Virus record (IMG/VR): IMGVR_UViG_3300042691_006355
Location: 268-64,267 of that record
DNA: 64,000 nt
Source: a virus
Lineage: Duplodnaviria > Caudoviricetes
Direction: 5' to 3' (one strand)
Within the stretch, counting starts at the first letter, position 1, and every line of letters begins with the position of its first letter. Positions 7,955 through 30,711 of the stretch are shown in pieces. Under the pieces are notes generated by a model that did no database searches, was not told the DNA's origin, and saw only the letters and a list, made by a program, of their open reading frames with translations. Made by a program: the position numbers and the translations under genes.

Positions 7955-8868
7955 TGAATAAAATTAAATTTCTATCAGCTCAACCAGCGATAGATTATTA
8001 CGCTTGGCAAATTGAGGTGCAAATTGTGAACCTCATGTTGACTGGATATGATCCAGAACAGATATATGTTATTGCAGGATATCAAGATGATATACCAGAG
8101 TCGTGGTTAAAACTAAAAGAAACGCATTCAAGTGTTAACTTTTTCTTTTATGAGGATACCCTTGGTGACTGTAAGTATCTTCCTGCAATACAGGCACACA
8201 TACTAAAGAAGCACTTTAAAGAACATCCAGACAATACACCGTACTTCTTTATTGATGCTGACTTTATATTCACTAGATATCTAGACTTTACACCGTACTT
8301 AAATGACGACAAGTGGTACTTCTCAGACACTATCTCATACATAGGTCATGACTACATAGTCAGCAAGGGAGAAGAGGTCTTAGAGGCTATGTGTGACGTT
8401 GTTGGAATATCTAAAGAGCTTGTCAAGTCAAACCAAGATAATAGCGGTGGAGCTCAAAAGTTGATGAAGAACCTAACTCATGAGTACTGGGAGATGGTAG
8501 AGAAGCACTCATTCGAGCTGTATGACGTCATGATGCAGCTACAGCACGTAAGAAATGACGGTAGCAATCATGGAATACAGGCATGGACGGCAAGCATGTG
8601 GGCCGAACTTTGGACAGCTTGGAAGTTAGGAATTGATGTTGTTGTTCCAAAAGATTTTGACTTCTGTTGGGCTACTTGCAACATTAAAAGATGGGACGAT
8701 GTATATTTCTTTCATAACGCTGGAGTAATGTCAGACAAGGACCGCATGTTTCACAAGGCAAAATATATGGACAAATACCCATTTAATTCAAATGAAATAG
8801 TGTCAGAACATAAGTGTTCATACAACTACTATAAGCTATTAAAATCAATAGATAGCTGTTTGGTTTAA
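7954..8868 (+). CDS. Putative GT-A glycosyltransferase, HPAT/SRGT1-like
   Basis: YYAWQ near N-terminus, FFIDADFIF (DxD), GGAQ, W-T-A-S-M-W and FHNAG motifs; ATG overlaps upstream stop (TAATG). Confidence 0.6.
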   Translation: MNKIKFLSAQPAIDYYAWQIEVQIVNLMLTGYDPEQIYVIAGYQDDIPESWLKLKETHSSVNFFFYEDTLGDCKYLPAIQAHILKKHFKEHPDNTPYFFIDADFIFTRYLDFTPYLNDDKWYFSDTISYIGHDYIVSKGEEVLEAMCDVVGISKELVKSNQDNSGGAQKLMKNLTHEYWEMVEKHSFELYDVMMQLQHVRNDGSNHGIQAWTASMWAELWTAWKLGIDVVVPKDFDFCWATCNIKRWDDVYFFHNAGVMSDKDRMFHKAKYMDKYPFNSNEIVSEHKCSYNYYKLLKSIDSCLV

Positions 8869-8886: not shown

Positions 8887-9693
8887 ATGTTAGCACCTCT
8901 TACTATATCATATTCTGATGACGTTCAAGGATGGACATCATTCTGGACGTATAAGCCAGACTATATGATATACGCATCAAACAATTTTTATACGTTCAAG
9001 AATGGTAATCTATACCTTCATAACGATGAAACTGCTACAAGAACTGTATACTATCCAAACACACCATTTGGAAATTTACCATTTTGTTCTGTCAGAACAA
9101 CGTTCAATGACGCTCCGTTAGATGTTAAACTATTTAAAACGGTATCACTAGAGAGCACGTCTCCATGGAATGTATACGTATTTACTGATCTTATATCTGG
9201 AAATATTGACGATACTTGGTTTGAGTTAAAAGAAGGTAGCTACTTTGGTCATGTAAGAAGAAACACTAACTTATCTGGAGCTTCATTAATAAACATAGGT
9301 CAACTTGACGATTCATTGTCTACTAGAGTACTTGGAGTAGGTTCAGTATTGAGCACAGGTGCTGGATACATAGAGTTCAATAGCTATCCAAGTCAATCAC
9401 TTAAGATAACAGACATAGCTTTTCCAGATCAACTATATGTTTATAATAGTGGTGGCGCATTAACATTTGTTGGTACTGTATCTAGCGTTGACAACTCATC
9501 TCCAAATCCAAAGGTATTTGTTACTGGTGGAGCAGTTCCAAACGTTGGCGATACCATACTAGCTGTTAAAAACTCAACGGCTGAGTCTTATGGAGCTAGG
9601 GGTTACTACATGGACACAACACTTACGTATAATAGTGGCGCTCCAGTTGAATTATTCGAGATAGGCTCCACAGTATTCAAAAGTTTTATGTAA
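8887..9693 (+). CDS. Tail stabilization protein, separated C-terminal part
   Basis: TISYSDDVQGWTSFWTYKPD...NNFYTFKNGNLYLHN, KLFKTVSLES, KEGSYF and ARGYY...VELF motifs, which I recall as the C-terminal part of this family. Confidence 0.7.
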   Translation: MLAPLTISYSDDVQGWTSFWTYKPDYMIYASNNFYTFKNGNLYLHNDETATRTVYYPNTPFGNLPFCSVRTTFNDAPLDVKLFKTVSLESTSPWNVYVFTDLISGNIDDTWFELKEGSYFGHVRRNTNLSGASLINIGQLDDSLSTRVLGVGSVLSTGAGYIEFNSYPSQSLKITDIAFPDQLYVYNSGGALTFVGTVSSVDNSSPNPKVFVTGGAVPNVGDTILAVKNSTAESYGARGYYMDTTLTYNSGAPVELFEIGSTVFKSFM

Positions 9694-12304: not shown

Positions 12305-15300
12305 ATGGAAGAACTAAATTCACAATCATCTTTTGATAGATTAATAGATAACACAACCAATCCACCAGAAGGTCTTCCTGATGGATTATATACGTATCCA
12401 GGTGTTGATGCGTTATATAAAAAAGAGAACGGTCAGTGGTTTAAAAAAGTTGGTGGTTCTAGCTATATTCAATTAAAAGATGGAAACGTAGCGGAAAGAA
12501 TCAAGAAGCTAGAGAGCGATGCTGTCGCTGTACCAAAAAAAAGGGAGGAAATACAGAAGTTTACGAACATACAAGACTTCGATGTAATTCAACCAGTAGA
12601 GCAATATACAGATATATTCGAAAGAAAAGAAAATCTACTAGTAAAACCAAAAAAAGAAGAGAAGCCAAAGGACATTAGAATAGTAGATAATGATGGAATA
12701 AAAACTTGGCAAGAACAAAAAGAGGTAAAGGTTCAACAAAAAATTGATCCAAAGACTGGTATTCCAACGGGACCGTCATACTTCGTTAAGTATGAAGACA
12801 TTACAGATCCTGCTAGAGTATCTAAATTAAACGAGTCATACAAGGAGGACGCATCAACAAGCAAAGACCAAAAAGTATTTACTGGTTATCCTGGAAAAGA
12901 AGGTACAGAATATATAATAAACGAAGACAATCTATGGGAAGTAAAGAGACCAGGATCAGATGATTTCTTAGTTATATCTACTCCAGAGTCTGTTACTGCA
13001 TTAAATAATTACTTTAAACAAAAAGCTGAAATATTTGATGACAAAAAGGCTGTTGAGATAAAAAACAAAAATAAAGAAACACTAGACTTAAGGTACAGAA
13101 TAAATAAGGTAGACAGAAAATTAATTCTAGGAACAGAAGAAAATGCACAAGAAGTTCTTGAAAGATTGTTTCCAGAGTATGAGTTTGAACAGTTTGGTAT
13201 AGGTACTGACAACATAAGAGTTAAAAGTAAGTCAAATGAAATAACTATATCTCTAGGGTCAAATGAATCAGACGAAAGCGAGGCATTAAGACTAAGAAGT
13301 TTCTTAAGAGAAAATGCAGGTGACATAGACGAGAGCCGATACAAGGCAATAATGCTACAAAGAAAGCTTGACGCTCAAAATAAAAAGTATTATGGTACGT
13401 TTGGATTTTCTGGTTTACAGACAGTTCTTGAAACTGGTAAACCAAAAGAATTAGGTCTTGAAGAAAAAACAGAAGCGGCAAGAGAGGAGTTCTTAATTGA
13501 CTTAAGTAGCCAATACAAAGACGCTTACTTAAGAACAAAAGACAAAAGTGAAAAAGAAAAAAACGCTGCGTTTTCTGTACTTAAACCAAAAGAAGAAGAG
13601 ATATCAATAATTAATAAATACGCTGATGATGTTTTAGCTCAGGGTAACATATTAATTAAACAAAAAAAACAAGTAGATACAGATATATCAATATTAGAAT
13701 CAAAATATAAGAATGGACTTATAAATGAAGATGAGTATAATCAATCTATTACTGATATAAAAGATAAATTAAAATTAATTAGTGATGAGTCAAATTCATT
13801 TCAAAATAATTTAAAGAACGTATCTCTATCTCAAGATCTTGTAAACAAATCAATTGCAGCAAATCTATTAATTCAAAAGAACAAGGGGTCATTTGTAGGT
13901 GGTATTGCATATAGTGCTGTAGATGGTATACTGTCAATACCTAGAATGGTAGCTATGGCAGACAAAGAGACTAAAGATAAGTGGATTGAAGAAATTGTAG
14001 GTGTAGGAACAACTGAAAGTTATGTAAACTCAGATGATAGGTGGGATATTACTAAGGCTGCATTTCAGATGTCAAGATCACTATCTGCTATGGCAGTTGG
14101 ATCTATAGGAGGTACATACGGAGCATACGCATCACTATATGCAATGTCATACTACGAGATGAAGGATGAGCTAGATCAACTTGACATATCTGGAGTATCA
14201 GAAGGAGACAAGGTGCTGATGTCTGGTGCATACGGATTAATTGGTGGAGCACTTGAAAACTTTGGTTTGAGTTATCTTGTAGGTAAATCTCCACTAAAGT
14301 CAGCACTATCTAACGCAATACTTAAAAATGCATTTAGTCAGATACCTAAGAATGCAAGCAAGGAAATGGTAGAGGCTCAAGTAATAAAGAGCACTAAAAT
14401 GATGATTGCTAAGTATGGTATTACTGCTGCTGGGTCTTCTTTACTTGAAGGTGGTGTAGAAGGAACGCAGAGACTTGCTCAAATGGGAATACAAGAGGTT
14501 TACGATGTAATGAAGGGTTCGGACTACTTTAATAATAAATCTGCTTATGAGGTGTTAGGTGACGTAGCATACGAGTCTTACATGGGATTCTTGGGTGGTG
14601 GAATTGTGGAGACAGTGCAACAATCTGGAAATGTATTAAAAGATGGATCTGCTGCGTTTAAAGATAAAAAACAATTAAATCTTTTAATTGATGCGGCAAA
14701 GACTATGGGTATAGACAAGGCTTTAGTATCAAAATTAAAGTCAGACATACTCAATGGTAATATTAAAAAAGAAGAGGCTGAAAAACAGTTAAATGCATTT
14801 AAAGAAATGCAGGGTAAGATAAAATCAATTCCTGACGACATGTCTGTTGATAATCAAGCCAAAGCACTAGACTTAATACTAGAGAGAGATAGACTTAATA
14901 AAGAGATAGAAGGGAAGGACCCTAACTTGGTTAAACCTCAGTCAGACAGGGTAACCGAGATTAATAATAGTCTGCAAGAATTATCAAAACAAAATGCCGT
15001 ACAAGAGCCAAGCACAGAGGGCGTTCTTCAACGCGAACAAGAAGGAGTTGCAGAAACAGGGGGTGAACGTGGAGGAATGGAACAAGTCGTCCAAGGGGAA
15101 GAAGTTACCAGAGAAGGTAAAACAAAAGCCGTCCAAGAAGAAGTAGTAATAGATAAGCCTGTAATTCAATCAAACTCAAAGACAGAGGTTGATAGAGTTA
15201 AGTCATTATCAAATGATGCTGAGGATGGTGCAACGTTCAACCTAGACGGAACAAAGTACGAAGGTAAAGGACTCATTGTTCCAGTAGTAAGTAAGAACAC

Positions 15301-18300
15301 TACTGCTGAAGAATTAACTCCAGAAATGATATCTGACTTTGTCGAAGAGCACAAAGATAAGATTGGAGACAACGAGACTGTAAAGGTTGGAATTTATAAA
15401 TTCCCAAACAGCAACCAGGTATCTATTGACTTAAATATACTGGCTCCAGAATCTGCTAGAGAACAAGCAATTGAGTTTGGTAAGAATGCAGACCAAGAGT
15501 CATTGTTTGACTTAAGTACATTCGAGAACGTTAAGACTGGAGGTACTGGACTTAATCCAGTACAGTTTAACAATGAGCAGTTTAGAGAGATATCTAAAGC
15601 ATTTAAGGAAGGAAGAGTTCCAGATGTATTTGCGCAACAACCCGTTACTCAAATTGAAGAAGTTACAATAACTCCAGAGACCAGTCAGACTGTTAGTGAG
15701 AGAATTAATAAGGAGACAGATACAAAAAGAAAGAAAGTATTTACTGCCGTTCAGAAAGTATTGTCTGCTATTCCTAATTCAAGAATTATATTGCACGACA
15801 ACACTGATGCATTTGTTGCTGGTGTTGCTAAGTCTGCCAATATAACAAATGACCAGGCTATATCTCAAGGTGTTCAAGATAACAGAGGTTCATATGTTAA
15901 TGGTGACATACATATAAACTTAGAAAAGGCTGGTGTGTCTACAGTATTTCACGAGGCGTTCCACGACCTGTTGGCAAAGAAAGGACTTGAGTCTGGCGCA
16001 TTGTTAGAAATGGCAAAAGGTCTTAAGTCAGTTATATCTGACAAAGCACTTAAGAAAAGACTTGATAACTTTGTATCTAACTATGAGCAGGGAGAAAGAG
16101 CTGAGGAGTATACTACTGAGCTTGGAGCCATCATGGCTGAGGCTCAGAGAGAACTATCTACTACAAAGTTCCAGCAGTTTAAAACACTAGTCAATAAGAT
16201 TGCCAAGAAGCTAGGTCTTCCTGTTGTCTTTTCTGCTGCATCAACTGCACAAGATGCCGTTGACTTTATGAACTCAATGTCTGGTAAGCTTGGAAGAGGT
16301 GAGCAGATTGAGGTTGGTGATGCTATTAAAGTTGATACAAATGAATTATCTATTAAGGCTGAAAGGATAGGTAATTTTGATGTATCATATTTTGAAGATG
16401 CTAATGATTACAAAAAATTAGTAGAAAATGGGAGTGTAGAAAACAATTATGATATAAATAAAATAGCTGGTGAAACTGTAGCTATACATCAACCAGACAA
16501 CATGTTTGTTGGAGATTTAAATTATAAAGGCAAAAATATATTTAAAGGTCTAGGAGGAGTTTTTTATACTTTAATTACTGGAAATGTTTGGGCATCTGGA
16601 TCTGAAACTTCAGCTAAAAATTTAACTAATTTAATAAATAAATCATTAAAAGAATCTACTGATGGTATTGGTAGATTAGTATTAGTTAGAGGGTCTGAGT
16701 CTAAAATGATATCATCTACAGAAGGAGTTAAGGCTGCAATGTCAATAATAGAATTGCTAGTTGATAAAGGATTAATAAATAGATCTGAATTTAGATCATC
16801 ACTAATTCGTGCTGGTAAAAAATTTAATATTGATTTTTCTGGTAAAGATTCATCAGCTGCAATACATAAAGACATTAAAGAAAAATTCATGGATGTTAAA
16901 AATTCAACATTCCAAAAAAGAGGAGATTTCTTTGATGAAGTTATAAATGATTTATCTAAAACTTCAAAAAGTGTATCAGAAAAAGAAAATATTGATAATA
17001 TACGAAAAGAATTAGGTAGCAAAAGAAAAATATCTTTTAGTAAAGATGGTATTAGAGATTCAATAGGTTATATACTAACTGAAAGATTACTTCAAGATTT
17101 ACCACCTAGTCATGTATATGCTGTAATAGAAGTTACTGAACCAGTTACATATGAAGAAAGAAAAGGTCATGATAGTTATCCTTGGGTTTTAAAGTCAAAA
17201 TCTAAACCAAAATTAAAATTATTATCCGACAGGGGTAATGCCGTTAAAGATGGCGTATTTGAAATGATTGATGGATCTGAAGTTACATTTGGTAAACTTG
17301 GACTAGCTCAAAGTGGCATTGGTATTGCAAAAATATCTAAACAAAAAACAAAAATTAATCAAATCAAAGCTCAAAAAACAGAACCTGTTGCTGGAAATAA
17401 ACTATTTAACGAGCCGTTAAAAGATGCCGAGACAATAGCAAAGTCATATATGAAGTCTGTAGGAATGGAATATGTTCCTGTAGAAAAGATAACCAAGCTA
17501 GATGAAAATATTTCAAAAAGAATATCCGATGCGTATGACAAAATGAAAAACGATCCTAACGATCCACAAGTCAAAAAAGCATACGAGGCTATGGCGAAGG
17601 AGACGTTAGATCAGTATGACCAGATACTAGAAAAAGGATATAATGTTGAGATAAATAATAACGAACCATACTCTTCTTCTGAGGACATGATAAATGATCT
17701 TAGAGACAATAAGAGAATGAAAATATTCTCTACTGAGTCTGGTTTTGGTGATGAGCCAATAACTGAAGAACAGAGAAAAGAAAATCCATTGTTAAGAGAC
17801 TCTGGTAGAAAAGATATCAACGGAGAAACTTTATTGGTTAATGATGTGTTCAGATTTGTACATGACTTTTTTGGTCATGCAAAATTAGGCAATAGCTTTG
17901 GTCCAATAGGAGAGGAAAATGCATGGAGAGTTCACTCAGAAATGTATTCACCAGAAGCTAGAAAAGCCATGACATCTGAGACAAGAGGGCAGAATAGCTG
18001 GGTTAATTTTAGCGGAGTTAATGACGCTGTATTTAAGAAAAGAGATAAGGCAAGAGAGCTTCGTAAACAAGGTAAGGTAGAAGAGGCAGACAAAATGGTC
18101 GGAGAGGTATACGAAGAGATGAAATTTGCCGATCAAAAAGTTGGACTACTTCCAGATTTTGCATTTGAGGAAGGAAGACCATCCAAAATAAAAGCACAAA
18201 TAGTAGGTAAAAATGCTAGACTATCTCAAGATGTAAGAGATAATTTACAGATAGCCAGAGAAATGGAAGATAATGGAAAATCTGATAAAGAAATAAGATT

Positions 18301-21300
18301 TACTACTGGATGGGAAAGAGGTGCTGATAAAAAATGGAGATATGAGATAGATGATAATATATTATTTGTAAAGAGTCGTCTTTTAAATGAATTTAAAAAA
18401 ATAGATCAAAATAATATCAATGAGATAAATATAAATAATGTTATATCAAATGAATTAATAAAGTTATATCCAGAAATTAAAGATGTAAAAATAATTTTTG
18501 ATCCAGCAATTAAGGTAGGAAATGCTTCATATAATTCTTCAACAAAAACAATATCAATATCATATGATCCTAATCTAAATGATTTAGCTGCCTCTCTTTT
18601 GCATGAAATTCAACATTCTATACAAGAAATAGAAGGTTTTGCTGTAGGAACTAGTATTTCGAAAATAACTGATTCATTAGGTGAAAAATTAATAAGTGAA
18701 ATAGAAAGTGGTAAAGATGCTGTAATTTACAATAAACTATATTCTATTCTTTCTGGAATAGATACATCAAACAAAATAAAATTAAAATCTGGTATGTCAA
18801 AAATACAGGCATTACTAGATAAATATTCAATAAAAAAATATGGTAAAACAGTTAATGCATCAGCTATTGATTTATATAAAAAATTTGCTGGAGAAACTGA
18901 AGCAAGAAATGTAGAGAATAGAATGAAAATGACTCCAGAAGAAAGGAGACAAACTACATTGCAAGAAACAGAAGATGTTGCTAGAGAAGACCAAATAATA
19001 TTTTTTGAAAATAAAATAAAAGCTCAAAAACAGTCAAAAGAAGATGCCATTCAAGATGCCAAGGACATACACGAAAAGTCATTCAAAAGATTTAAAGATT
19101 CAAAAAGAGCCATAGCAAATGCCGTAAATAATCTTGAAAAGTCAGACTGGTATAGAGACTCTGACGACACTCAAAGAGAGGAGGCAGTAAGAGAGATCAA
19201 AGAATTCTTTGGAGAGAAAATAAAGAAGGCTACATCTGTTGCCAAGGTAATGGGCAAGACCAAGCAGACTGCCTTTGTGTCTGACCTTGCTGCGGCAATT
19301 CGCGACCAAGTTAAGTTACAGGCACGATCATCAAGAGAGACAGCTAAAGATATCAACGATAGACGTAAGGCCCTTGGAGAGTCTATAAAGCAGGTTGTAA
19401 AGAGCTACAAAGGAAAGATAACAGAGAAACAATTGAACGCTATAAATAGAAGAATAGCAAGCGTTAATCTGTTTAACCAGGAAATGGTTGATAGAGTAGT
19501 TGACTACGTGAACAAGGTGATGAGCAATGCAGAGTACGCTGGAAAGGTAAACAATGCATTTGCAGAAAGAAGAGCGATCAGAAGAATGATGAAGTCTGGA
19601 AACATGACAGAGACTGTCGCTGTTGCCAGAGAGTTTGTTCAGATCGATCCGTCAATGGTGGATGACATAGACACGTATCTTGAGATGGCCGCTCAAATTA
19701 GAGGGGCAGTAAAATCATCAAAACGTGTAAAAGACTCAGTATCGTTAAAGCAGATTGTGAACTTTGGAGAGGCATACGAATACATCAAACCAACCCTTGA
19801 AAGACAGGAAGAGATGATGAAAAATATGAGACTTGCCGAGTATAACGATCTAGTTGACTCTGGTGTTATATCTAAAGATATGACGCTTAAAGAAATCAAT
19901 AAGATAATAAATACTATTAGAGATAATGCAGACGCAGAGATAAAGGCAGATGAAGAAGCTGCTGCTATGGATTTTCTAAAAGATAAACTAGGATACATTA
20001 AAACTTTGCTTCGTATATCTCCATTAAAGGGATACAATCCAGTAACTGGAGAACAGATTGAGATAAGCGAAAGACATTCAAATATGATTAATAATATAAT
20101 CAAATCAAATCTAGACGATTTGTCTTTAAAGCAAATGATAGAGATGGTTGATTCTTTAAATAATTTCTATGAGAATGGAGCAGTTGGAGGACTTGAAGCG
20201 GCATACGAGACAATACTAGGAGAACAAAATGCCAAGTCTTTAGAAAAGAAAGGTATTGTTGCAAGACCACTAAAGATGTACTTCAATAAAAAACTTGGTC
20301 AAATATTTGGAACCGAACTTACATCTCTTAACGAACTGTTTAACAGAATGTTTGTTGGGGCTAAGAAAGGTATAGAAGTAATGGCTAAGAGTGGTTTTTC
20401 AGATATTATTATTGGAGCCAATAAAGCTAGAAGACAGATAAAAGAAATACAGGATAGATACGTTAAAGAATTCGAAAAAACTAAAGACTTCTTCCAGATT
20501 GAAAATGTTTATGAGAGAGGTGCATTTGCGTTCTTAAGTAGAAACTTAATTGGAAATGATGCAGAAGTAAAATCAGAGTTTAATAGACGTGTAGACCTGT
20601 TACTTGAAAGTGTTGAGGCATTGAAAAATGGAACGTCCAAAGAGCAAGAAATGGCTAAAATATACGAGAAGGTATTAGATAAGATGGATGTAAAGTCTAG
20701 AGATCTTGATACAATTGCTGGTAAAATGGAGAGTTTTAATAAAGAAGCAACGCAATGGTGGATAAACGAATGGTCCAAGCACTACTCAGACCTATCAGAC
20801 GTGTCAAGATCAGTATACAACACAATACTAGGAAAGGATATAAACTATACCCCAGACAGATACAAGTCAACAACAGAAGGATCAAAATTAGGTATAGACG
20901 ATAACATAGTAGAAAGAAACTCGGCATTCTTAATCAACACAGATTCTATAACAGATACTAACGAGTCTGGTGTTATGATTGCATCAGTTAGACCTAAAGT
21001 CCTACCAAAAGGAAGGTACGTAAGCCTTGACTTTGATATGAATAATGTTGACTCACTTACAGGTGCGCTGGTAGATATAAACACTGCTGGAGCAATTAGA
21101 AGGTTAGATTCATTCTTTAAGTCTAAGTCATTTAAAGCAATTGTACCAACTATTGAAGATAGAAAGATACTTACAGAAAGAGTAAACAAGTATATCAGAA
21201 GATCTAAAAACAAACTGTCTGTTCCTAGCGATGTGTTTAGAAACATTGACAACGCACTGAATACTGTATCATCAGTAGGAACAGCGTTAGGTTTAGGTGG

Positions 21301-22882
21301 CGTTTTACAGTCGGTTAAACAGACCGTATCAGTTGCTATAAGCACAGCAATACAAACTGGAACAAGCTTTAAAATATACGCTGGTGAAGAATTTAATAAT
21401 TGGTTAAATACAACTGGAGCCTCTGTAACTAACAGAGGACAGGAGTCATTAACAGCTATTGAGAGTACCAATAAAAAATTAAAATCATTTAACGGAACAT
21501 TTGACAAGGCTATTGACACGTACAAGAACCTGACTCAGTGGCAACTAAAATTGTTTCTATCTAGACCAGATGTATTTGTTGCTAGAGCAGCGTTTAAGTC
21601 TTACTATGAGCAATACTTAAAGAGCAATGGGTATGACGTATCTAAAATAAATTGGTCAACATGGAACGAAACAATTAAAAAAGAAGGTCTCAAAGAATTG
21701 AATGATGCCGCTGTTATATATGCAGACACAATGGTTTCAAGACAGCAAAACGTATCTGATGAAAGACTGGCTGGTGAACTTCTTGCATCTGAAGACTCAG
21801 CTAGAAAATTGATTAGAAAAGCTTTGTTACCTTTTGCATCGTTCAGTATCAACCAAAGAGCTAGACTTGTTGCTGACATTAACGCACTATTCTTAAACTG
21901 GAATAACATATCTCCAGAAGATAAGGCAATTGCAATAAAATCAATTGCTGGTACAACAGCAGAGCAAGGAGTGTTCCAAATGATAAACTTTGGAATTGGT
22001 ATGGCACTTTACTCAATTGCTCAGTCAATGGCAGGTAATGATGACGATGACGAAGAATGGAAAAAAAGAATGCTTAACGCAACAAAATATCCATTGAGGT
22101 CACTTCTTGCTGATATGACATCACCTAACCCATTGGCAGATGATGCAGTAATATTTGGTGCAGATGAGTTGTTGGCTATGTTCGGATCTCCAAGCGAAGG
22201 TGAGATAAAGCAAGCAATAAATGATGAGAAAAAACTAAGAGAGATGCTAGGAAAAGAAATGACTGAATCTCAGATAAATAAATTTAAGGAGCAATACATA
22301 AAAGATAACACGTATCAACTTACTTATAACTTTACAAATAGCGAGGAAGGTAAGTATGGAATGTTCTCAATTGCTGCTGATCAGTATTTAAAATTAGCAG
22401 AAAACTCTGAAATGGCAACTAATGGTACATTTACAGATGACTACATGGGCAACAAGACAACCAAGTACCTAACAGATAAAGACAAGTCACTAGCTAAGGC
22501 TGTGTTTTATGGACTAGAGGTTCCGTATACAACTGGTGCTGGAGTTAAAGAGATGGGTCAAGTTGCAAACAAGACATACTCAATAATTAAAAAGAGAGCT
22601 CTAACTGAAAATCAATATGATACTTACAGGCAGTTTAAAAAAGAATTCAAGAGAGAGCCTCAAGATTGGGAAATTAAAATGATTAAATCAACAAATTCAT
22701 CAAATAAAGCCATAAATGAATTAGGATTCATACAATATATGGGAGGATTAAGTCCAAAACAAGGAGAAGAATACTTAAAAGTATTTAAGAAATTTGGAGA
22801 AAATGGACTAGATGAAGACGACTATAAAATGATTGTTAAAAATAAATCAGCAGACTATATAATTAAGAAAGCCTTAAAATAA
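12305..22882 (+). CDS. Giant polyvalent virion/ejection protein with zincin-like (HExxH) and LPD23-like domains
   Basis: 3525 aa; HEAFH (15950), HDFFGH...GEENAW (17861), TGWERGADKKWRYEIDD (LPD23-like), HEIQH...AGETEARNV (18602). Confidence 0.75.
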   Translation: MEELNSQSSFDRLIDNTTNPPEGLPDGLYTYPGVDALYKKENGQWFKKVGGSSYIQLKDGNVAERIKKLESDAVAVPKKREEIQKFTNIQDFDVIQPVEQYTDIFERKENLLVKPKKEEKPKDIRIVDNDGIKTWQEQKEVKVQQKIDPKTGIPTGPSYFVKYEDITDPARVSKLNESYKEDASTSKDQKVFTGYPGKEGTEYIINEDNLWEVKRPGSDDFLVISTPESVTALNNYFKQKAEIFDDKKAVEIKNKNKETLDLRYRINKVDRKLILGTEENAQEVLERLFPEYEFEQFGIGTDNIRVKSKSNEITISLGSNESDESEALRLRSFLRENAGDIDESRYKAIMLQRKLDAQNKKYYGTFGFSGLQTVLETGKPKELGLEEKTEAAREEFLIDLSSQYKDAYLRTKDKSEKEKNAAFSVLKPKEEEISIINKYADDVLAQGNILIKQKKQVDTDISILESKYKNGLINEDEYNQSITDIKDKLKLISDESNSFQNNLKNVSLSQDLVNKSIAANLLIQKNKGSFVGGIAYSAVDGILSIPRMVAMADKETKDKWIEEIVGVGTTESYVNSDDRWDITKAAFQMSRSLSAMAVGSIGGTYGAYASLYAMSYYEMKDELDQLDISGVSEGDKVLMSGAYGLIGGALENFGLSYLVGKSPLKSALSNAILKNAFSQIPKNASKEMVEAQVIKSTKMMIAKYGITAAGSSLLEGGVEGTQRLAQMGIQEVYDVMKGSDYFNNKSAYEVLGDVAYESYMGFLGGGIVETVQQSGNVLKDGSAAFKDKKQLNLLIDAAKTMGIDKALVSKLKSDILNGNIKKEEAEKQLNAFKEMQGKIKSIPDDMSVDNQAKALDLILERDRLNKEIEGKDPNLVKPQSDRVTEINNSLQELSKQNAVQEPSTEGVLQREQEGVAETGGERGGMEQVVQGEEVTREGKTKAVQEEVVIDKPVIQSNSKTEVDRVKSLSNDAEDGATFNLDGTKYEGKGLIVPVVSKNTTAEELTPEMISDFVEEHKDKIGDNETVKVGIYKFPNSNQVSIDLNILAPESAREQAIEFGKNADQESLFDLSTFENVKTGGTGLNPVQFNNEQFREISKAFKEGRVPDVFAQQPVTQIEEVTITPETSQTVSERINKETDTKRKKVFTAVQKVLSAIPNSRIILHDNTDAFVAGVAKSANITNDQAISQGVQDNRGSYVNGDIHINLEKAGVSTVFHEAFHDLLAKKGLESGALLEMAKGLKSVISDKALKKRLDNFVSNYEQGERAEEYTTELGAIMAEAQRELSTTKFQQFKTLVNKIAKKLGLPVVFSAASTAQDAVDFMNSMSGKLGRGEQIEVGDAIKVDTNELSIKAERIGNFDVSYFEDANDYKKLVENGSVENNYDINKIAGETVAIHQPDNMFVGDLNYKGKNIFKGLGGVFYTLITGNVWASGSETSAKNLTNLINKSLKESTDGIGRLVLVRGSESKMISSTEGVKAAMSIIELLVDKGLINRSEFRSSLIRAGKKFNIDFSGKDSSAAIHKDIKEKFMDVKNSTFQKRGDFFDEVINDLSKTSKSVSEKENIDNIRKELGSKRKISFSKDGIRDSIGYILTERLLQDLPPSHVYAVIEVTEPVTYEERKGHDSYPWVLKSKSKPKLKLLSDRGNAVKDGVFEMIDGSEVTFGKLGLAQSGIGIAKISKQKTKINQIKAQKTEPVAGNKLFNEPLKDAETIAKSYMKSVGMEYVPVEKITKLDENISKRISDAYDKMKNDPNDPQVKKAYEAMAKETLDQYDQILEKGYNVEINNNEPYSSSEDMINDLRDNKRMKIFSTESGFGDEPITEEQRKENPLLRDSGRKDINGETLLVNDVFRFVHDFFGHAKLGNSFGPIGEENAWRVHSEMYSPEARKAMTSETRGQNSWVNFSGVNDAVFKKRDKARELRKQGKVEEADKMVGEVYEEMKFADQKVGLLPDFAFEEGRPSKIKAQIVGKNARLSQDVRDNLQIAREMEDNGKSDKEIRFTTGWERGADKKWRYEIDDNILFVKSRLLNEFKKIDQNNINEININNVISNELIKLYPEIKDVKIIFDPAIKVGNASYNSSTKTISISYDPNLNDLAASLLHEIQHSIQEIEGFAVGTSISKITDSLGEKLISEIESGKDAVIYNKLYSILSGIDTSNKIKLKSGMSKIQALLDKYSIKKYGKTVNASAIDLYKKFAGETEARNVENRMKMTPEERRQTTLQETEDVAREDQIIFFENKIKAQKQSKEDAIQDAKDIHEKSFKRFKDSKRAIANAVNNLEKSDWYRDSDDTQREEAVREIKEFFGEKIKKATSVAKVMGKTKQTAFVSDLAAAIRDQVKLQARSSRETAKDINDRRKALGESIKQVVKSYKGKITEKQLNAINRRIASVNLFNQEMVDRVVDYVNKVMSNAEYAGKVNNAFAERRAIRRMMKSGNMTETVAVAREFVQIDPSMVDDIDTYLEMAAQIRGAVKSSKRVKDSVSLKQIVNFGEAYEYIKPTLERQEEMMKNMRLAEYNDLVDSGVISKDMTLKEINKIINTIRDNADAEIKADEEAAAMDFLKDKLGYIKTLLRISPLKGYNPVTGEQIEISERHSNMINNIIKSNLDDLSLKQMIEMVDSLNNFYENGAVGGLEAAYETILGEQNAKSLEKKGIVARPLKMYFNKKLGQIFGTELTSLNELFNRMFVGAKKGIEVMAKSGFSDIIIGANKARRQIKEIQDRYVKEFEKTKDFFQIENVYERGAFAFLSRNLIGNDAEVKSEFNRRVDLLLESVEALKNGTSKEQEMAKIYEKVLDKMDVKSRDLDTIAGKMESFNKEATQWWINEWSKHYSDLSDVSRSVYNTILGKDINYTPDRYKSTTEGSKLGIDDNIVERNSAFLINTDSITDTNESGVMIASVRPKVLPKGRYVSLDFDMNNVDSLTGALVDINTAGAIRRLDSFFKSKSFKAIVPTIEDRKILTERVNKYIRRSKNKLSVPSDVFRNIDNALNTVSSVGTALGLGGVLQSVKQTVSVAISTAIQTGTSFKIYAGEEFNNWLNTTGASVTNRGQESLTAIESTNKKLKSFNGTFDKAIDTYKNLTQWQLKLFLSRPDVFVARAAFKSYYEQYLKSNGYDVSKINWSTWNETIKKEGLKELNDAAVIYADTMVSRQQNVSDERLAGELLASEDSARKLIRKALLPFASFSINQRARLVADINALFLNWNNISPEDKAIAIKSIAGTTAEQGVFQMINFGIGMALYSIAQSMAGNDDDDEEWKKRMLNATKYPLRSLLADMTSPNPLADDAVIFGADELLAMFGSPSEGEIKQAINDEKKLREMLGKEMTESQINKFKEQYIKDNTYQLTYNFTNSEEGKYGMFSIAADQYLKLAENSEMATNGTFTDDYMGNKTTKYLTDKDKSLAKAVFYGLEVPYTTGAGVKEMGQVANKTYSIIKKRALTENQYDTYRQFKKEFKREPQDWEIKMIKSTNSSNKAINELGFIQYMGGLSPKQGEEYLKVFKKFGENGLDEDDYKMIVKNKSADYIIKKALK
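14994..15146 (+). CDS. Nested 50-aa basic protein in +1 frame of the giant gene
   Basis: MPYKSQAQRAFFNANKKELQKQGVNVEEWNKSSKGKKLPEKVKQKPSKKK*; A-rich leader AAAACAAA-ATG; resembles small phage proteins starting MPF/YKSxAQR. Confidence 0.65.
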   Translation: MPYKSQAQRAFFNANKKELQKQGVNVEEWNKSSKGKKLPEKVKQKPSKKK

Positions 22883-26751: not shown

Positions 26752-29106
26752 CTAAAAGTTTAATTCATTTTGATTATTAGTATTAACAAACTGCACCATC
26801 TTGCCATGTGCGTTCCTAAATATCTTAGGCTTCTCCCCGAACTTGTACTCTCCAAGAGAGTCCATCCACCTGTAGAACCTGTTGTGAGAAAGCTTGTACC
26901 TTCCATACGGACCGTAGTCTGGGTACTCCTCTGTAAACTTGTTGTACATTGACTGACCTGGACTTGCAATGTCAATCTTGATGTAGTCGTTGTCACTTGA
27001 GGTTGCCCACTCCCAAAAGTCAGCAGATGTCTCAGCAATAAACTTGCGTGTCTTTAGGTTCATGAAGTCACAACGTATAAGACCTTTGGATAGGTACATT
27101 TGTAGGTTTGATATCATGTAGTTGTCAAACTTTGACCACTCGTTACTATCCCATCCTGCAAACAACATGTGACCAAACTCAGTCTCTGGAGTAAACATCT
27201 TCGAGTAGTACTGCTTGAACTCTAGGTCCCACTTCCTTCTCTCAAAGCTATTACCTGCACCCTTGATCGCGTAGTTAGTTGTTATGACAATCTTTGGAGA
27301 ACTCTCAAACGGTATATGTATCTCGTCCTTGTTCTTCTTCTCAAGCGTTATTCCCTCAGTGATTACACTGAACAGCCTCTCGAAGTCAAAGTTCTTGCTA
27401 ACGTCATCAAACACTAGTGTCTGAGTGTCAACCTGCACACGTTGGTAAGGGAATGACTTTTGAAAGCTGAAACCTTTACCATCAATTATCACCATCTTTT
27501 TGATGTACGAGATCGACTTAACAAAAATCCCCTTACCCGTACCACCTTCAGGATTATCGCTAATAACCTCATCATTAAGTATGACAGCAGGGCAGTAGCT
27601 AGCAGGCTTGTAACTATGAAGAAGATAACCAATTGTTGACTCCATCGACTGAACGCGGCTCTCGTTGTTACCAGAAATGTTTTTGACAAATCTCTTATAC
27701 TCACAATCATCAATTTTTAATTTATTAAAGTTTCTATTAATCTTCTGTTTCTCCCACACGTATCCACCCAAGTCCTTGTAGTCTATCATCACCGTATCGT
27801 TTGCCGTAACCTTCACAGCGCAGTTGCTGTAGTACAGGTAAGCCTCGTCTATGGTGTCAACCATAAAGTTTGGCTCGACCTTGGCAACATAGTTTAGGAA
27901 TGTCTCTTGGAAGAACTTCGTGTTGATAGCAAAGAAGTTGTACACCGACATGTCGTTTATTCCCATCAAGTAGTCCAACACAAAGTCCTTGATCATGTCC
28001 TCGTTGGTATCGCTAATTATGTTGTCAATGATTCTGACAAAGACAAAGTTGTTTGATCCATTGGGGTAGTACTTGTAGAACCCGTTGCCCTTTAGATAGT
28101 CTCTGAATAGGTGAGGCACAAGATCAATCTTCCCCTTGCTACTCTTGGACCAAAACTCGTTGTACTCCTGCGTCTCTACCATCTCGTTGATTACGTTCTC
28201 GTCAACGTCTGGGTACTGATCCTTAACTTCCTTGATTGGAACACCTCTAAGTAGGTCGTTCTTTATTGATGTTGTCTTGTCAATATCCTCGTAGAACTTA
28301 GTGGCATGCTCGTGTACGTTCTTGTATGCAGACCATACAATTGTTTTCATCTCAGATGCCATATCGCCATCGTCATACGACAGCAACACATCAAGTGCCT
28401 CGTCCTTTGGTATTCCGTACTGGTTAAGTGCTGAGGCAAATATGAATAGGTTATTGTTTCGTTGCCCCTTGACCATCCCGTACTTCTTGTTCCACCACAA
28501 CGATAGCCTTCTTACAACCTCGTTTGAGTCGTTGACTCGTATCCTTGGCTTTGGCTTAACAAAGTCATCGCTGTTGTCCATCTCTACCCAGGTGTCTGAC
28601 AGCTCGTTTACAAATATGTCTGGGTCATAGCTCTCGTAACACACACGTGATATGTTCTTGCAAGACTTGTCAAACTCATCACAGCTGTAGTACTTCTGTA
28701 AGGCGACAAAGTACTTCTTGTGGTTAGATGCGTCCTTTGGAATTCTAACAAGCACCTTGAGTCCATCACCCGATGGTGACGTAAACACAGCGTATGAGTA
28801 CTTGTCGTTACATAGATCCTGTCTCATCTGATACAAAGACTGATCGTCCTTGAACCCATCGAAGTCTATGCATATGAGTCCGCTGTGCTCAATTATAGCG
28901 TTGTCAGCACGTCTAGAAAACTGACCAGAAAATAAAATTGAAGGAAGACCTTTCTTAAGATTGTTGCGTTGCTCCTTGTCCTCGGCAGAACGAATGAGCT
29001 CAACTAGGTCTCTCGATACACCATCTCTAATTCTATCTAATGCAACTAGTACGTCTACGTGGTAAGGCTTGTCAGTTTCATTGATTGATTTAAAGTAGGT
29101 TATCAT
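26752..29106 (-). CDS. Primase-helicase (BT4734/VirE-N-like AEP primase, PriCT, SF3-type P-loop)
   Basis: HSGLICIDFD, FTSPSGDGLK, GQRNNNLF, GGTGKG Walker A; likely start MITYFK at 29106. Confidence 0.88.
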   Translation of the reverse strand: MITYFKSINETDKPYHVDVLVALDRIRDGVSRDLVELIRSAEDKEQRNNLKKGLPSILFSGQFSRRADNAIIEHSGLICIDFDGFKDDQSLYQMRQDLCNDKYSYAVFTSPSGDGLKVLVRIPKDASNHKKYFVALQKYYSCDEFDKSCKNISRVCYESYDPDIFVNELSDTWVEMDNSDDFVKPKPRIRVNDSNEVVRRLSLWWNKKYGMVKGQRNNNLFIFASALNQYGIPKDEALDVLLSYDDGDMASEMKTIVWSAYKNVHEHATKFYEDIDKTTSIKNDLLRGVPIKEVKDQYPDVDENVINEMVETQEYNEFWSKSSKGKIDLVPHLFRDYLKGNGFYKYYPNGSNNFVFVRIIDNIISDTNEDMIKDFVLDYLMGINDMSVYNFFAINTKFFQETFLNYVAKVEPNFMVDTIDEAYLYYSNCAVKVTANDTVMIDYKDLGGYVWEKQKINRNFNKLKIDDCEYKRFVKNISGNNESRVQSMESTIGYLLHSYKPASYCPAVILNDEVISDNPEGGTGKGIFVKSISYIKKMVIIDGKGFSFQKSFPYQRVQVDTQTLVFDDVSKNFDFERLFSVITEGITLEKKNKDEIHIPFESSPKIVITTNYAIKGAGNSFERRKWDLEFKQYYSKMFTPETEFGHMLFAGWDSNEWSKFDNYMISNLQMYLSKGLIRCDFMNLKTRKFIAETSADFWEWATSSDNDYIKIDIASPGQSMYNKFTEEYPDYGPYGRYKLSHNRFYRWMDSLGEYKFGEKPKIFRNAHGKMVQFVNTNNQNELNF

Positions 29107-29318
29107 AGCATTGATTTTAATTTTTGTAAATAAATAACTGCATCCATAAGCTCCTCTTGCAAGTGTGTCATCCAATCCTCAACAGACAGATCATTTCTAT
29201 CCATTGTTGTGTTGTACTTCTTGATCCCTACGGTTGATCTGCTCCGCATTTTAGAGACTACAGCCTCTACTACACTGTCAACCTTTATGTCGGCAGTGGA
29301 TGTTGATTTCCATTCCAT
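29103..29318 (-). CDS. Small conserved phage protein
   Basis: GIKKYNTTMDRNDL...HLQEELMDAVIY motif common in phages. Confidence 0.7.
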   Translation of the reverse strand: MEWKSTSTADIKVDSVVEAVVSKMRSRSTVGIKKYNTTMDRNDLSVEDWMTHLQEELMDAVIYLQKLKSML

Positions 29319-29340
29319 ATGTATTGTGTTTATCGATTAC

Positions 29341-29375
29341 AAAATAAAGCGCACACTGTCCATACCCATGTGCGC
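29341..29375 (-). terminator. Intrinsic terminator downstream of tRNA region
   Basis: Minus strand GCGCACA-13 nt-TGTGCGC followed by TTTATTTT. Confidence 0.55.
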
Positions 29376-29435
29376 AGAGTTTTTACCCTATATGGGGGCT
29401 AACCACAGAACCCTAACTGTAACTATAACTCTAAG

Positions 29436-29518
29436 TAGTCAGGGCAGGACTCGAACCTGCACTAGCCCTGGTATTCACCATATTAAATTAGGACCATGTT
29501 ACATTACACCACCTGACT
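29436..29518 (-). tRNA. tRNA-like element with aberrant anticodon domain (pseudo-tRNA)
   Basis: Acceptor AGTCAGG/CCTGACT, T-arm GCAGG-TTCGAGT-CCTGC, D-like TGGTGTAATGTAACA; 7-bp anticodon stem with 20-nt loop. Confidence 0.7.
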
Positions 29519-29649
29519 ATATTGCTTGTCTTTCCAAGCTGTCACGATTTTCCTAGTGTCAGACAATTGTTTTGCCTCTCATTACCTTACTAGTTTTGGG
29601 GAGTGTCTACCTGATTACACACATCCATTCCACCTTGCAGGGGAAAATG

Positions 29650-29721
29650 TAGTTCCACCTGGACTCGAACCAGGAATACAAGCTTAGAAGGCTAGTGTTA
29701 TATCCCTTTAACTATGGAACT
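29650..29721 (-). tRNA. tRNA-Arg(UCU)
   Basis: AGTTCCA/TGGAACT acceptor, anticodon loop CT-TCT-AA, T-arm CCTGG-TTCGAGT-CCAGG. Confidence 0.92.
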
Positions 29722-30125
29722 AATAAATAATCTTTTGCTAAGTTAATACCTTTTGTTTGATTGTTTTTACTTTCTTCAACTCTTAGAGTTACTGTTTTAT
29801 CAAACTGTGAAGGTATAACATAGTATACTTCGTTGCTTTCTGGACAATATATGGCAAGTAAATCAATAAGAGACTTATCTACTGCTCTTGTATGAACACC
29901 ATGTGAGTCAGAGTATGAACTTGAAAAGGATACAAAAACAGATCCTTTTCTTAATGTTCTATACTTAACAGAAACTCTCATTAATGTACCGTCAGGTTTA
30001 ACTGCAATTAAATCAAATGGTAAGTGTTCAGATAATGGTAAGCATATCTGAATTCCTTTTGATAATAGATCTGCAATTACATTACCTGTGCCCTTATCTC
30101 CTTTGTCTTTTGTATGGTGTTTCAT
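29712..30125 (-). CDS. PD-(D/E)XK homing endonuclease, I-Ssp6803I/PDDEXK_5-like, free-standing
   Basis: TKDKGD..., PLSEHLPFDLI, RVSVK, IDLLAIYCPE and LRVEESKNNQ motifs. Confidence 0.8.
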   Translation of the reverse strand: MKHHTKDKGDKGTGNVIADLLSKGIQICLPLSEHLPFDLIAVKPDGTLMRVSVKYRTLRKGSVFVSFSSSYSDSHGVHTRAVDKSLIDLLAIYCPESNEVYYVIPSQFDKTVTLRVEESKNNQTKGINLAKDYLLVP

Positions 30126-30180
30126 AGTTAATTGTTTCTATAAAGATACAAAATAATTATGAGACCACCAAATACCTAAT

Positions 30181-30211
30181 GTGTTGCTCTATCCAGCTGA
30201 GCTACGGGACC
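30181..30211 (-). pseudogene. 5' half remnant of a tRNA (Arg-type)
   Basis: GGTCCCGTAGCTCAGCTGGATAGAGCAACAC, stops before the anticodon loop; no matching 3' half nearby. Confidence 0.75.
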
Positions 30212-30216
30212 ATAGA

Positions 30217-30438
30217 CTATTTATCAAGTTTTATCTGATGATCATCTAGTATCTCGTAGAACTTGTTCCTAATCCTTTCTACCATGTCCCACTCTTTTTC
30301 ATCAAGTTCCTCGTACTTCCATAGCGTTCTAAGCTCTTGAGATATATCCCATAATGCTGAGTACATCTTACCACCTTGAACAGCAAAGTCAAAGTCAGAT
30401 TGATCTTCTGGCAGGTTAAATGTTAGTTTTGCTTTCAT
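30217..30438 (-). CDS. Conserved hypothetical phage protein
   Basis: MKAKLTFNLPEDQ family-like start. Confidence 0.7.
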   Translation of the reverse strand: MKAKLTFNLPEDQSDFDFAVQGGKMYSALWDISQELRTLWKYEELDEKEWDMVERIRNKFYEILDDHQIKLDK

Positions 30439-30468
30439 ATCATTTCTATTTAGTTAATGTGGCAAAAT

Positions 30469-30711
30469 TTACCCCTTATTCTTTATTGATTTGTTAAAGG
30501 TTTCGTTGTAGTATTGTTCACCTGCATTATCATTGCTGCCATCATACCATTTCATGCAAGCATTTTCTATCTGCTCTTTCTCCGTTCCTAACCTTGATTC
30601 AGAATCAGATATACATAAATTAATACAATTAACTAATGTTGGTGCGTTTTCTTTACATATGTCTAATGTAGCTTTTAACCACTCAATATGTTGTTGCATT
30701 GCTGTTTTCAT
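30469..30711 (-). CDS. MKxTA...EKEQI...YYNETF family hypothetical protein
   Basis: Paralog of 30713-30946. Confidence 0.6.
   Translation of the reverse strand: MKTAMQQHIEWLKATLDICKENAPTLVNCINLCISDSESRLGTEKEQIENACMKWYDGSNDNAGEQYYNETFNKSIKNKG

Follow-up and report, generated by a model that had tools for sequence, protein, structure and literature searches.

Integrative elements that target transfer RNA (tRNA) genes carry at attP a copy of the tRNA 3' end, which restores the tRNA gene that they interrupt. A characterised nuclease of the I-Ssp6803I family is reportedly tied to a group I intron in the anticodon region of a tRNA gene, as the title of a 2001 report by Bonocora and Shub has it. Homing endonucleases can enter conserved genes for proteins and RNAs by virtue of their association with self-splicing elements (PMC3943268, in excerpt), and the phage introns known by 2014 were, according to an excerpt of PMC3984707, all located in protein genes despite the many tRNA genes of phages. 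Fungal mitochondria contain so-called mORFs, in which an endonuclease gene is combined with a foreign C-terminal segment that replaces the native one; the examples given in an excerpt of PMC3630166 are Allomyces atp6 and Glomus atp6, atp9, cox2, and nad3. Here, we analyzed a 64,000-nucleotide (nt) stretch of a Caudoviricetes genome (positions 268 to 64,267 of IMG/VR record IMGVR_UViG_3300042691_006355; this whole stretch is referred to as the window). It contains a mobile unit of approximately 530–545 base pairs (bp), which consists of a leader and a nuclease gene, with a complete gene for tRNA-Arg(UCU) fused to the 3' end of the nuclease reading frame. With good confidence, we regard this unit as a self-complementing, intron-less homing cassette that inserted into the phage's own gene for tRNA-Arg(UCU), directly behind U33, and compensates for the damage with a spare gene.

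Anatomy of the nested cassette

On the minus strand, the locus comprises, in order, a 73-amino-acid (aa) open reading frame (ORF) ending at 30217, a 5' fragment of a tRNA-Arg gene, the leader, the nuclease ORF, and the complete tRNA-Arg(UCU) gene. Beyond the latter follow a 130-nt spacer, an odd tRNA-like gene, a 71-aa ORF, and the gene of an 807-aa protein just downstream of the cassette region, which we call a primase-helicase because it contains BT4734-like_N, PriCT_1, and DUF5906 domains. The 5' fragment (30178–30211, minus strand) was recognized through its match to intact relatives as a dead piece of the native tRNA-Arg(UCU) gene. It retains the acceptor strand, the D arm, the 5' strand of the anticodon stem, and two loop bases, and its motif GTAGCTCAGCTGGATAGAGC occurs only once in the window (30186–30205; 0 occurrences expected from 100 shuffles). 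Nucleotides 1–29 of the fragment (30211–30183) are identical to nucleotides 1–29 of the intact tRNA-Arg(TCT) genes of two related viral contigs (L002 and L004). In a comparison with public sequencing runs, which was based on assembled contigs, contigs of run X1 with intact tRNA-Arg genes matched the window up to 30178, where their anticodon loop continues. Since the remnant corresponds to standard nucleotides 1–33 in the comparison with intact alleles, the break is located inside the anticodon loop after U33. An earlier interpretation made from the letters of the window (the sequence-only reading) had correctly noticed this fragment, but had described it as a 31-nt half that was cut before the anticodon loop.

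The nuclease ORF (29712–30125, minus strand; 137 aa) matched Pfam family PF11645 (PDDEXK_5) over profile positions 1–136 of 138 with E = 2.7e-30 and 105.6 bits (cut-off 26.1), and a search of NCBIfam assigned it to no family. In a Foldseek search with its AlphaFold2 model (pLDDT 91.1, pTM 0.84), ranks 1–4 were occupied by chains A–D of I-Ssp6803I (2OST; best E = 2.4e-8, TM 0.72), followed by Hjc resolvases and SPARDA nuclease domains. The assignment as an I-Ssp6803I-like homing endonuclease of the PD-(D/E)XK type, already proposed in the sequence-only reading, was thus borne out by both the family profile and the fold. Residues D38 and K54, the putative catalytic residues, do not vary among 33 homologues and are aligned with the D and K of 2OST. 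The protein database contained 535 homologues at E ≤ 1e-5, and almost all of the closest approximately 40 homologue clusters (at least 66% identity) are exactly 137 aa long. Across seven cassettes, the variable columns of the ORF fall on codon positions 1, 2, and 3 in the proportion 36/22/73, and the nuclease genes of L086 and L091 differ by 26 synonymous and 4 non-synonymous codons. Judged from these substitution patterns, the ORF is under purifying selection. For the I-Ssp6803I-like family, a tetrameric assembly is stated in an excerpt of PMC3943268.

The complete tRNA-Arg(UCU) gene (29649–29721, minus strand), hereafter the cargo or "new-type" tRNA, was called by ARAGORN and scored 61.1 bits in Rfam. 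It overlaps the nuclease ORF by 10 nt (GTT CCA TAG), and the stop codon TAG forms U8-A9-G10 of the tRNA; a complete and divergent tRNA-Arg(UCU) gene whose first ten nucleotides encode the end of the ORF had been predicted and is indeed present. Differences between the cargo tRNA and the old-type tRNA of the invaded gene are located in the D arm, the anticodon stem, and the variable loop. Among six copies, including a tRNA of Synechococcus phage Sf-FR1, compensatory changes occurred in 10 of the 19 cloverleaf pairs, and from this pattern the cargo tRNA, too, is under purifying selection. It is the only tRNA-Arg gene that ARAGORN detected in the 64-kilobase (kb) genome, in which AGA accounts for 397 of the 541 arginine codons (73%) in 23 long ORFs. 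All eight elements whose right side could be seen contain the whole cargo tRNA within the cassette.

The leader (30126–30177, minus strand) spans 52 nt from the break to the ATG and is conserved across cassettes: counted from 30179, 51 of 54 nt are invariant in the seven cassettes in which 73 of the 137 third codon positions of the ORF vary. It contains the motif TATCTTTA (30141–30148, minus strand), a possible −10-like element that is present and invariant in 7/7 full cassettes. A homologous leader also precedes the nuclease of the distant element L154, which has TATATT at the corresponding position, preceded by a TTGGAA at a distance of 17 nt. The leader is probably a promoter and 5' untranslated region. 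The motif TATCTTTA, which the sequence-only reading called a promoter element, is thus present at the stated position, but its promoter role is only putative, since a sigma-70 scan of the leader yielded nothing. A two-box consensus of the Bacteroidetes type was not enriched in the window (4 matches vs. 2.0 expected; 14 of 100 shuffles reached 4), and the fold of the 5' remnant together with the leader was not significant (z = −1.66). As a separate candidate, we considered a degenerate whole tRNA upstream of the nuclease, since the start of the leader resembles the variable loop and T stem of the old tRNA in 11 of 13 nt by eye. This idea was dropped because three other elements (L087, L089, and L154) carry true 3' halves downstream.

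Empty, occupied, and replaced sites

For a comparison of the locus, 80 of 255 relatives found by a viral-contig search with the primase protein were used. In 15 of these (L001–L014 and L047), a single intact 75-nt tRNA-Arg(TCT) gene lies 260–330 nt upstream of the primase gene, no second tRNA-Arg gene was found at the site of these 15 relatives, and the nuclease was absent from the primase-linked loci of all 80. Thus, relatives that lack the ORF and have an intact tRNA-Arg(UCU) gene beginning with GGTCCCG at this site, which the sequence-only reading had anticipated, do exist. The alignment with L002 is unbroken from the upstream ORF to nucleotide 29 of the tRNA (window 30458–30183, corresponding to L002 4675–4953) and resumes two bases after the 3' end of the tRNA. 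Conversely, a contig of 2,756 nt from another study (run X2) represents a close relative that has the cassette, with one differing letter in 563.

Further copies of the cassette were sought with the nuclease protein and the leader motif, and were found on four viral contigs (L086–L089) and three short metagenome contigs (L090–L092). Altogether, the same cassette occupies the same point of a tRNA-Arg gene, after U33, in eight other phage contexts. The window segment 30211–29649 is 83–95% identical to L081–L084, with 95% for L082 and L083. This similarity covers exactly the stretch from the first base of the tRNA fragment through the final base of the cargo tRNA; in the other contexts, the flanks show no relationship at the nucleotide level and have only stray genes in common. 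These recurrent insertions at one tRNA position between unrelated flanks mark the cassette as mobile and site-specific and, together with the lack of any Rfam intron core in the window and in L083, agree with the earlier proposal of an intron-less selfish cassette. The acceptor strands of the 5' fragments vary (GGTCCCG, GGTCCTG, AGTCCCA, GGTTCCA, GGTTCTG, and GGTCCGC). As the anticodon-stem strand beside the cassette, most copies have ACACA; L084 has ACTGC, as do the window's own relatives, and L090 has ACTCA. We read the 5' fragments as native pieces in which donor markers close to the insertion appear to have been co-converted.

An orphan 5' piece of the invaded tRNA gene is found in 9/9 elements, and an orphan 3' piece in three of the eight elements with a visible right end. 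In these three (L087, L089, and L154), the 3' part of the old tRNA follows 8–24 nt after the cargo tRNA. The two halves pair with each other in the acceptor stem (AGTCCCA/TGGGACT and GGTTCCA/TGGAATC) and in the anticodon stem (ACACA/TGTGT and ACAGA/TCTGT), and ARAGORN in its intron mode rebuilds a cloverleaf of 75–77 nt across gaps of 529–544 nt. Intact tRNAs with the ACACA...TGTGT stem occur in 46 viral contigs, 45 of which have the loop CTTCTAA, and no nuclease was detected in the fetched stretches of these contigs. The contigs L133, L125, L119, and L124/L122 are empty sites that are syntenic with L089 on both sides, and against these L089 shows a clean insertion of 544 nt, the cassette being the whole difference. 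The cassettes of L086 and L089 are 98.6% identical, and their flanks 79–84%. Element L154 has the same architecture, including the CCA-TAG overlap, at a nuclease identity of only 56%, and the design of the cassette is therefore old. Contigs from an RNA-library run (X15) cover 29776–30212 and lead from a variant cassette into a different upstream flank; they were not counted as expression because of possible DNA carry-over.

The former statement that the locus has no matching 3' exon holds for the window, but L087, L089, and L154 keep the 3' half. In the window, the acceptor strand expected at the 3' end of the old tRNA (CGGGACC) had three matches, which were the complement of the remnant itself and two sites 17–22 kb away. 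A candidate for an old 3' half after the cargo tRNA was rejected, as its alignments to the 3' halves of L089 and L087 were matched by 222 and 233 of 500 shuffles, respectively. Separately, we observed that the orphan 3' halves of L087 and L154 read TTTAA, compared to TCTAA in the intact alleles and in L089. Either the anticodon letter of the orphans would have changed, or the junction would differ by a few bases between elements.

In addition to empty and occupied sites, there are loci at which the new-type tRNA stands alone. Contigs L202 and L206 are alleles of L113, which has an intact old-type tRNA: their flanks align up to both ends of the tRNA and are, by stretch, 77–96% identical, and the exchange is confined to the tRNA. 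In L206, this nuclease-free tRNA is identical to the cargo tRNA of the window (73/73 nt). Another contig with the new type alone (L207) has the upstream flank of the occupied contigs L088 and L092. From these alleles and the other nuclease-free contigs, it follows that old, occupied, and new-alone states coexist. We read the new-alone sites as products of repair off the cargo tRNA of a donor, as results of nuclease loss, or as naturally immune lineages.

Explanations for the cassette

If the cassette is a self-complementing homing unit, its nuclease would cut the uninterrupted old-type tRNA-Arg(UCU) gene of co-infecting phages in or near the anticodon loop, and the break would be repaired from the cassette-bearing genome. 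The two tRNA halves (approximately 33 and 40 nt) or longer flanks could serve as homology arms. The insertion would destroy the target tRNA gene and at the same time make the split target immune to cutting. The cargo tRNA would escape cutting through its different D arm, anticodon stem, and variable loop, and would restore the decoding of AGA; we propose that the invaded target is tolerated because the cassette carries a full replacement tRNA. Repair off the cargo tRNA itself, or a later loss of the nuclease, would leave the alleles that have only the new type. The position of the stop codon adds a further aspect. Because it is located inside the tRNA, processing by RNase P would leave a nuclease messenger RNA (mRNA) without a stop, an idea that rests on the established biology of RNase P and of transfer-messenger RNA (tmRNA). 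Such a non-stop mRNA may hold the nuclease at a low level, and the overlap would tie the nuclease physically to a gene that the phage needs.

A more far-reaching picture, which we offer as a tentative possibility, regards the cassette as a ribozyme-free alternative to a mobile intron and adds to it a dependence of the phage on the cassette, expression coupled to tRNA maturation, a three-state allele cycle, and a clade-wide targeting of tRNA genes. The dependence would arise because the cargo becomes the only tRNA-Arg(UCU). The cycle in lake phages would run through sensitive old, occupied, and immune new alleles, and would spread one tRNA among unrelated phages. The approximately 50 phage-borne relatives beside tRNA-Arg(UCU) or tRNA-Ser(GCU) genes may represent a nuclease family that targets tRNA genes and shapes the tRNA arrays of phages.

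These relatives were found at 51 further viral loci with 29–56% nuclease identity, most of them in tRNA arrays of phage contigs of 70–390 kb. A tRNA-Arg(TCT) gene lies within 100 nt of the nuclease in 29 of the 51 loci (22 upstream and 7 downstream of it), and a tRNA-Ser(GCT) gene in 11. Free-standing forms also occur in Synechococcus phage Sf-FR1, where a tRNA-Arg gene is followed by a PD(D/E)XK coding sequence overlapping a tRNA-Val gene, and in Acinetobacter phage Herod, where a nuclease homologue follows tRNA-Arg(tct). At locus L146, the TAG of a 49%-identical nuclease lies at nucleotides 8–10 of a tRNA-Arg(TCT) gene, and there is no split tRNA. A plausible history would be that a free-standing module of nuclease and tRNA-Arg from a large phage was captured in a break that it had made in the tRNA-Arg gene of another phage, and plausibly the captured module then spread by using the tRNA halves as homology arms.

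Three further observations concern this wider clade. A nuclease sub-clade (30–49% identical) lies 32–97 nt from tRNA-Ser(GCT) genes in tRNA arrays of large phages (L147, L148, L188, L189, L191–L193, L195, L196, L198, and L180). The nuclease is located upstream of the tRNA in ten of these loci and 75 nt downstream in L180, which suggests a second tRNA-gene specificity. In L155 (~1400–1500), a tRNA with an amber-suppressor-like anticodon, called Pyl(cta) by ARAGORN, lies 20 nt upstream of a 50%-identical nuclease. In L145 (~1370–1400), the tRNA-Arg(TCT) gene upstream of the nuclease is immediately preceded by a 14-nt direct repeat of its own 5' end, which may be the scar of an earlier break and repair.

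Several points weigh against a self-complementing homing cassette. Cleavage, immunity, homing, and expression are all inferred from comparative anatomy only. In the catalytic motif, Ser52 takes the middle position, which is occupied by Gln in 2OST. The right junction is mixed, with the old 3' half kept in three of eight elements, lost in four, and chimeric in L086. The cargo tRNA of this last element ends with the old acceptor strand and the spacer is missing, which looks like a deletion between two T arms. Cargo-type tRNAs occurred without a nuclease within 1,200 nt, and without old fragments, in 11 further viral contigs. They show variation of their own, and because of these contigs the cargo-type tRNA may be native, and not cargo, in some lineages. 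Nuclease-free sites with the new tRNA, which the sequence-only reading had named as evidence that would speak against its proposal, are therefore found in other lineages but not in that of the window; we do not read those of the other lineages as a refutation. Among the distant relatives, the nuclease-adjacent tRNA-Arg alleles are diverse, some of them having an old-like D arm. No common "immune" signature was found among these alleles, and in view of this diversity the basis of immunity is not evident.

Finally, all nested copies have one common left junction, which would also be explained by one ancient insertion that then spread by ordinary recombination between tRNA genes. Taken to its end, this alternative makes the locus a recombination scar: one old illegitimate event followed by passive spread via tRNA genes, with a nuclease that is inactive or has another role, such as an attack on the tRNA genes of competitors or of the host. 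Besides the single left junction, the mosaic tRNA slots (Arg, Lys, Tyr, and odd tRNAs at the same site) and the movement or persistence of the new-type tRNA without the nuclease fit a scar. We nevertheless consider a scar improbable, as the ORF is under purifying selection in seven copies and almost all of its close relatives are exactly 137 aa long. Moreover, the cassette is far more similar between phages than its flanks are, the break lies in the anticodon region, where the characterised family member acts (going by the title of its description), and the clade is linked to tRNA-Arg(UCU) in 29 of 51 loci.

Considerably less probable is an unusual spliced intervening sequence, in which a reduced or novel ribozyme, or a host enzyme, would restore the old tRNA and the inner tRNA would have a structural or processing role. 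Such splicing would agree with the insertion in the anticodon loop right after a U, as in bacterial group I introns of tRNA genes, with the tie of the nuclease family to such an intron (Bonocora and Shub 2001, title only), with the almost invariant leader, and with the retention of both halves in L087, L089, and L154, which would make a good cloverleaf. However, Rfam scans at E ≤ 10 of window positions 28900–30700 (7 matches) and of L083 positions 2700–3800 (9 matches) detected no intron family, and in the window no other ribozyme either, and the matches in the window were two tRNAs and chance matches only. The outcome is the one that had been predicted for a scan for a group I intron core. 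Only about 130 nt of the element lie outside the ORF, and 73 of these are a complete tRNA. In group I introns, the 5' exon ends in U and the intron in G. Here, the upstream piece does end in U33, but the elements of L089 and L087 have A as their last base, and that of L154 has T or A. In addition, no old 3' half is present in the window, in the X2 contig, or in L084, L091, and L092, joining of the halves would give the anticodon UUU in L087 and L154 and UCU only in L089, and an inner tRNA with the same anticodon would be redundant.

It is just as improbable that the nuclease is a plain free-standing gene upstream of a native new-type tRNA and the 5' fragment a leftover of a decayed neighbouring tRNA, because, even though distant relatives reside in tRNA arrays, often 16–79 nt downstream of an intact tRNA-Arg(TCT) gene, and the new-type tRNA occurs natively without the nuclease, the 15 nuclease-free relatives in the window lineage have the old type and no second tRNA-Arg, the flank and acceptor strand of the fragment are native, and three contexts have the matching 3' half beyond the far end of the cassette.

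In conclusion, the element is real and well supported by the comparison of its copies, and its biochemistry (cleavage and immunity) is predicted from them. If the self-complementing homing cassette is the correct explanation, phages would have a solution other than self-splicing for the invasion of a tRNA gene, in which the element brings along a spare copy of the gene that it targets. For the poorly sampled PD-(D/E)XK homing family, this would add many natural members with readable target and immune alleles, which would be useful for studies of specificity. The cassette may also explain why unrelated phages have identical tRNA genes and why tRNA slots are mosaic, and its three allelic states in public lake metagenomes would make it a tractable case for following how a selfish gene is gained, fixed, and lost in nature.

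Genomic setting, neighbouring features, and known systems

The window, which spans a 64,267-bp contig except for 267 bases, has the gene content of a phage, and the cassette lies within a minus-strand block of replication genes. A single ORF of 3,525 aa (12305–22882, plus strand) makes up about a sixth of the genome. The public runs that contain the stretch are labelled as lake and freshwater metagenomes, and some as fungus metagenomes. A nucleotide search of INPHARED returned only tRNA-Arg matches, which covered 2–4% of the query, and none of the isolated phages in this collection was similar to the region outside its tRNA. The leader motif had 0 matches in genome contigs and thus provided no lead to a host or prophage.

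Beyond the cargo tRNA and outside the cassette, the spacer (29519–29648, minus strand) contains a sigma-70-like promoter (GTGACA-18-TATAGT, 29545–29516). A sequence with 94% identity to it occurs behind another tRNA-like gene in an unrelated phage contig of 35 kb (L153), and from this match and the absence from the X2 contig the spacer was classified as an inter-tRNA module. In the X2 contig, the 3' end of the cargo tRNA (29649) is joined directly to 29434. Since this contig lacks both the spacer and the odd tRNA, the 214-nt block of the two is a separate module. The fold of the spacer was not significant (z = −0.99). A 734-nt contig from RNA-library run X15 (word depth 46) also contains the spacer, bordered on either side by other sequence than in the window. 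In run X1, one contig joins 30204 to 29435 with 11 letters in between, from which we draw no reading.

The odd tRNA-like gene (29435–29518, minus strand) is a neighbour and not a part of the cassette, with a sigma-70-like promoter of its own. ARAGORN reported it as "tRNA-???" and Rfam scored it with 42 bits, with 20 nt at the place of the expected 7-nt anticodon loop. It is conserved in L052 (5637–5722) and L067 (2436–2521), with eight compensatory pairs in the acceptor and T stems. Its acceptor, D, and T arms are normal, and its anticodon region is highly conserved yet non-canonical; ARAGORN proposed a 6-nt loop with "(tt)", that is, Lys or Stop. More tRNA-like genes were seen in L052 (5455–5570), L038 (4199–4258 and 4325–4425), and the reverse complement of L153 (~8730–8810 and ~8950–9040). 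Their D arms are class-II-like and their T and acceptor arms are good; the anticodon arm is either replaced by approximately 55–60 nt of unrelated sequence or missing altogether, as in L038 4199–4258 (Rfam tRNA, 42.9 bits). These genes could be decoys, pseudogenes, or an unknown RNA class.

The slot upstream of the primase gene itself varies among the relatives. Besides Arg(TCT) in the 15 contigs described above, it contains Lys(TTT) in L016–L018 and L075 and the odd tRNA in L052. A Tyr(GTA) gene lies further upstream in L036 and L060, the odd tRNA of L067 is located about 2.3 kb upstream of its primase gene, and in most relatives no tRNA was called. Every slot variant is followed by the same conserved sequence of approximately 40 nt (window 29422–29380).

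No description of a cassette of a nuclease and a whole tRNA nested in a tRNA gene was found in searches of an open-access library, and the element was compared with several known systems. It resembles I-Ssp6803I (from the group I intron of the Synechocystis tRNA-fMet gene; 2OST) in nuclease family and fold, and both have a tRNA gene as target and an insertion in the anticodon region, the target of I-Ssp6803I being taken from a title only. However, the cassette nuclease is only about 20% identical to I-Ssp6803I and occurs in phages and not in a cyanobacterial chromosome. The cassette has no group I intron and would compensate with a spare tRNA, whereas I-Ssp6803I relies on RNA splicing. With SegB of phage T4 (PMC2330249, in excerpt), it shares the free-standing ORF in a phage tRNA region. 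Its presence/absence polymorphism and the apparent co-conversion of flanking markers are reminiscent of intronless homing. In contrast to the cassette, which is a PD-(D/E)XK element inside its target gene that it replaces, SegB-type genes are located between genes and encode GIY-YIG enzymes. Integrative elements likewise restore the interrupted tRNA gene with sequence that they bring in, but they do so through site-specific recombination by an integrase, with a duplication of the 3' end alone, whereas the cassette of approximately 545 bp contains no integrase.

In its logic, judged by this comparison, the closest analogue of the cassette is the mORF of fungal mitochondria. In both, as far as the excerpt of PMC3630166 describes the mORFs, an endonuclease gene carries a substitute, and the displaced native part is orphaned downstream. 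The mORFs replace the 3' part of a protein gene by an in-frame fusion, whereas the cassette would replace a whole RNA gene in a phage; unlike the mORFs of that excerpt, the cassette can leave both native halves as orphans and has a 10-nt overlap between the ORF and its cargo.

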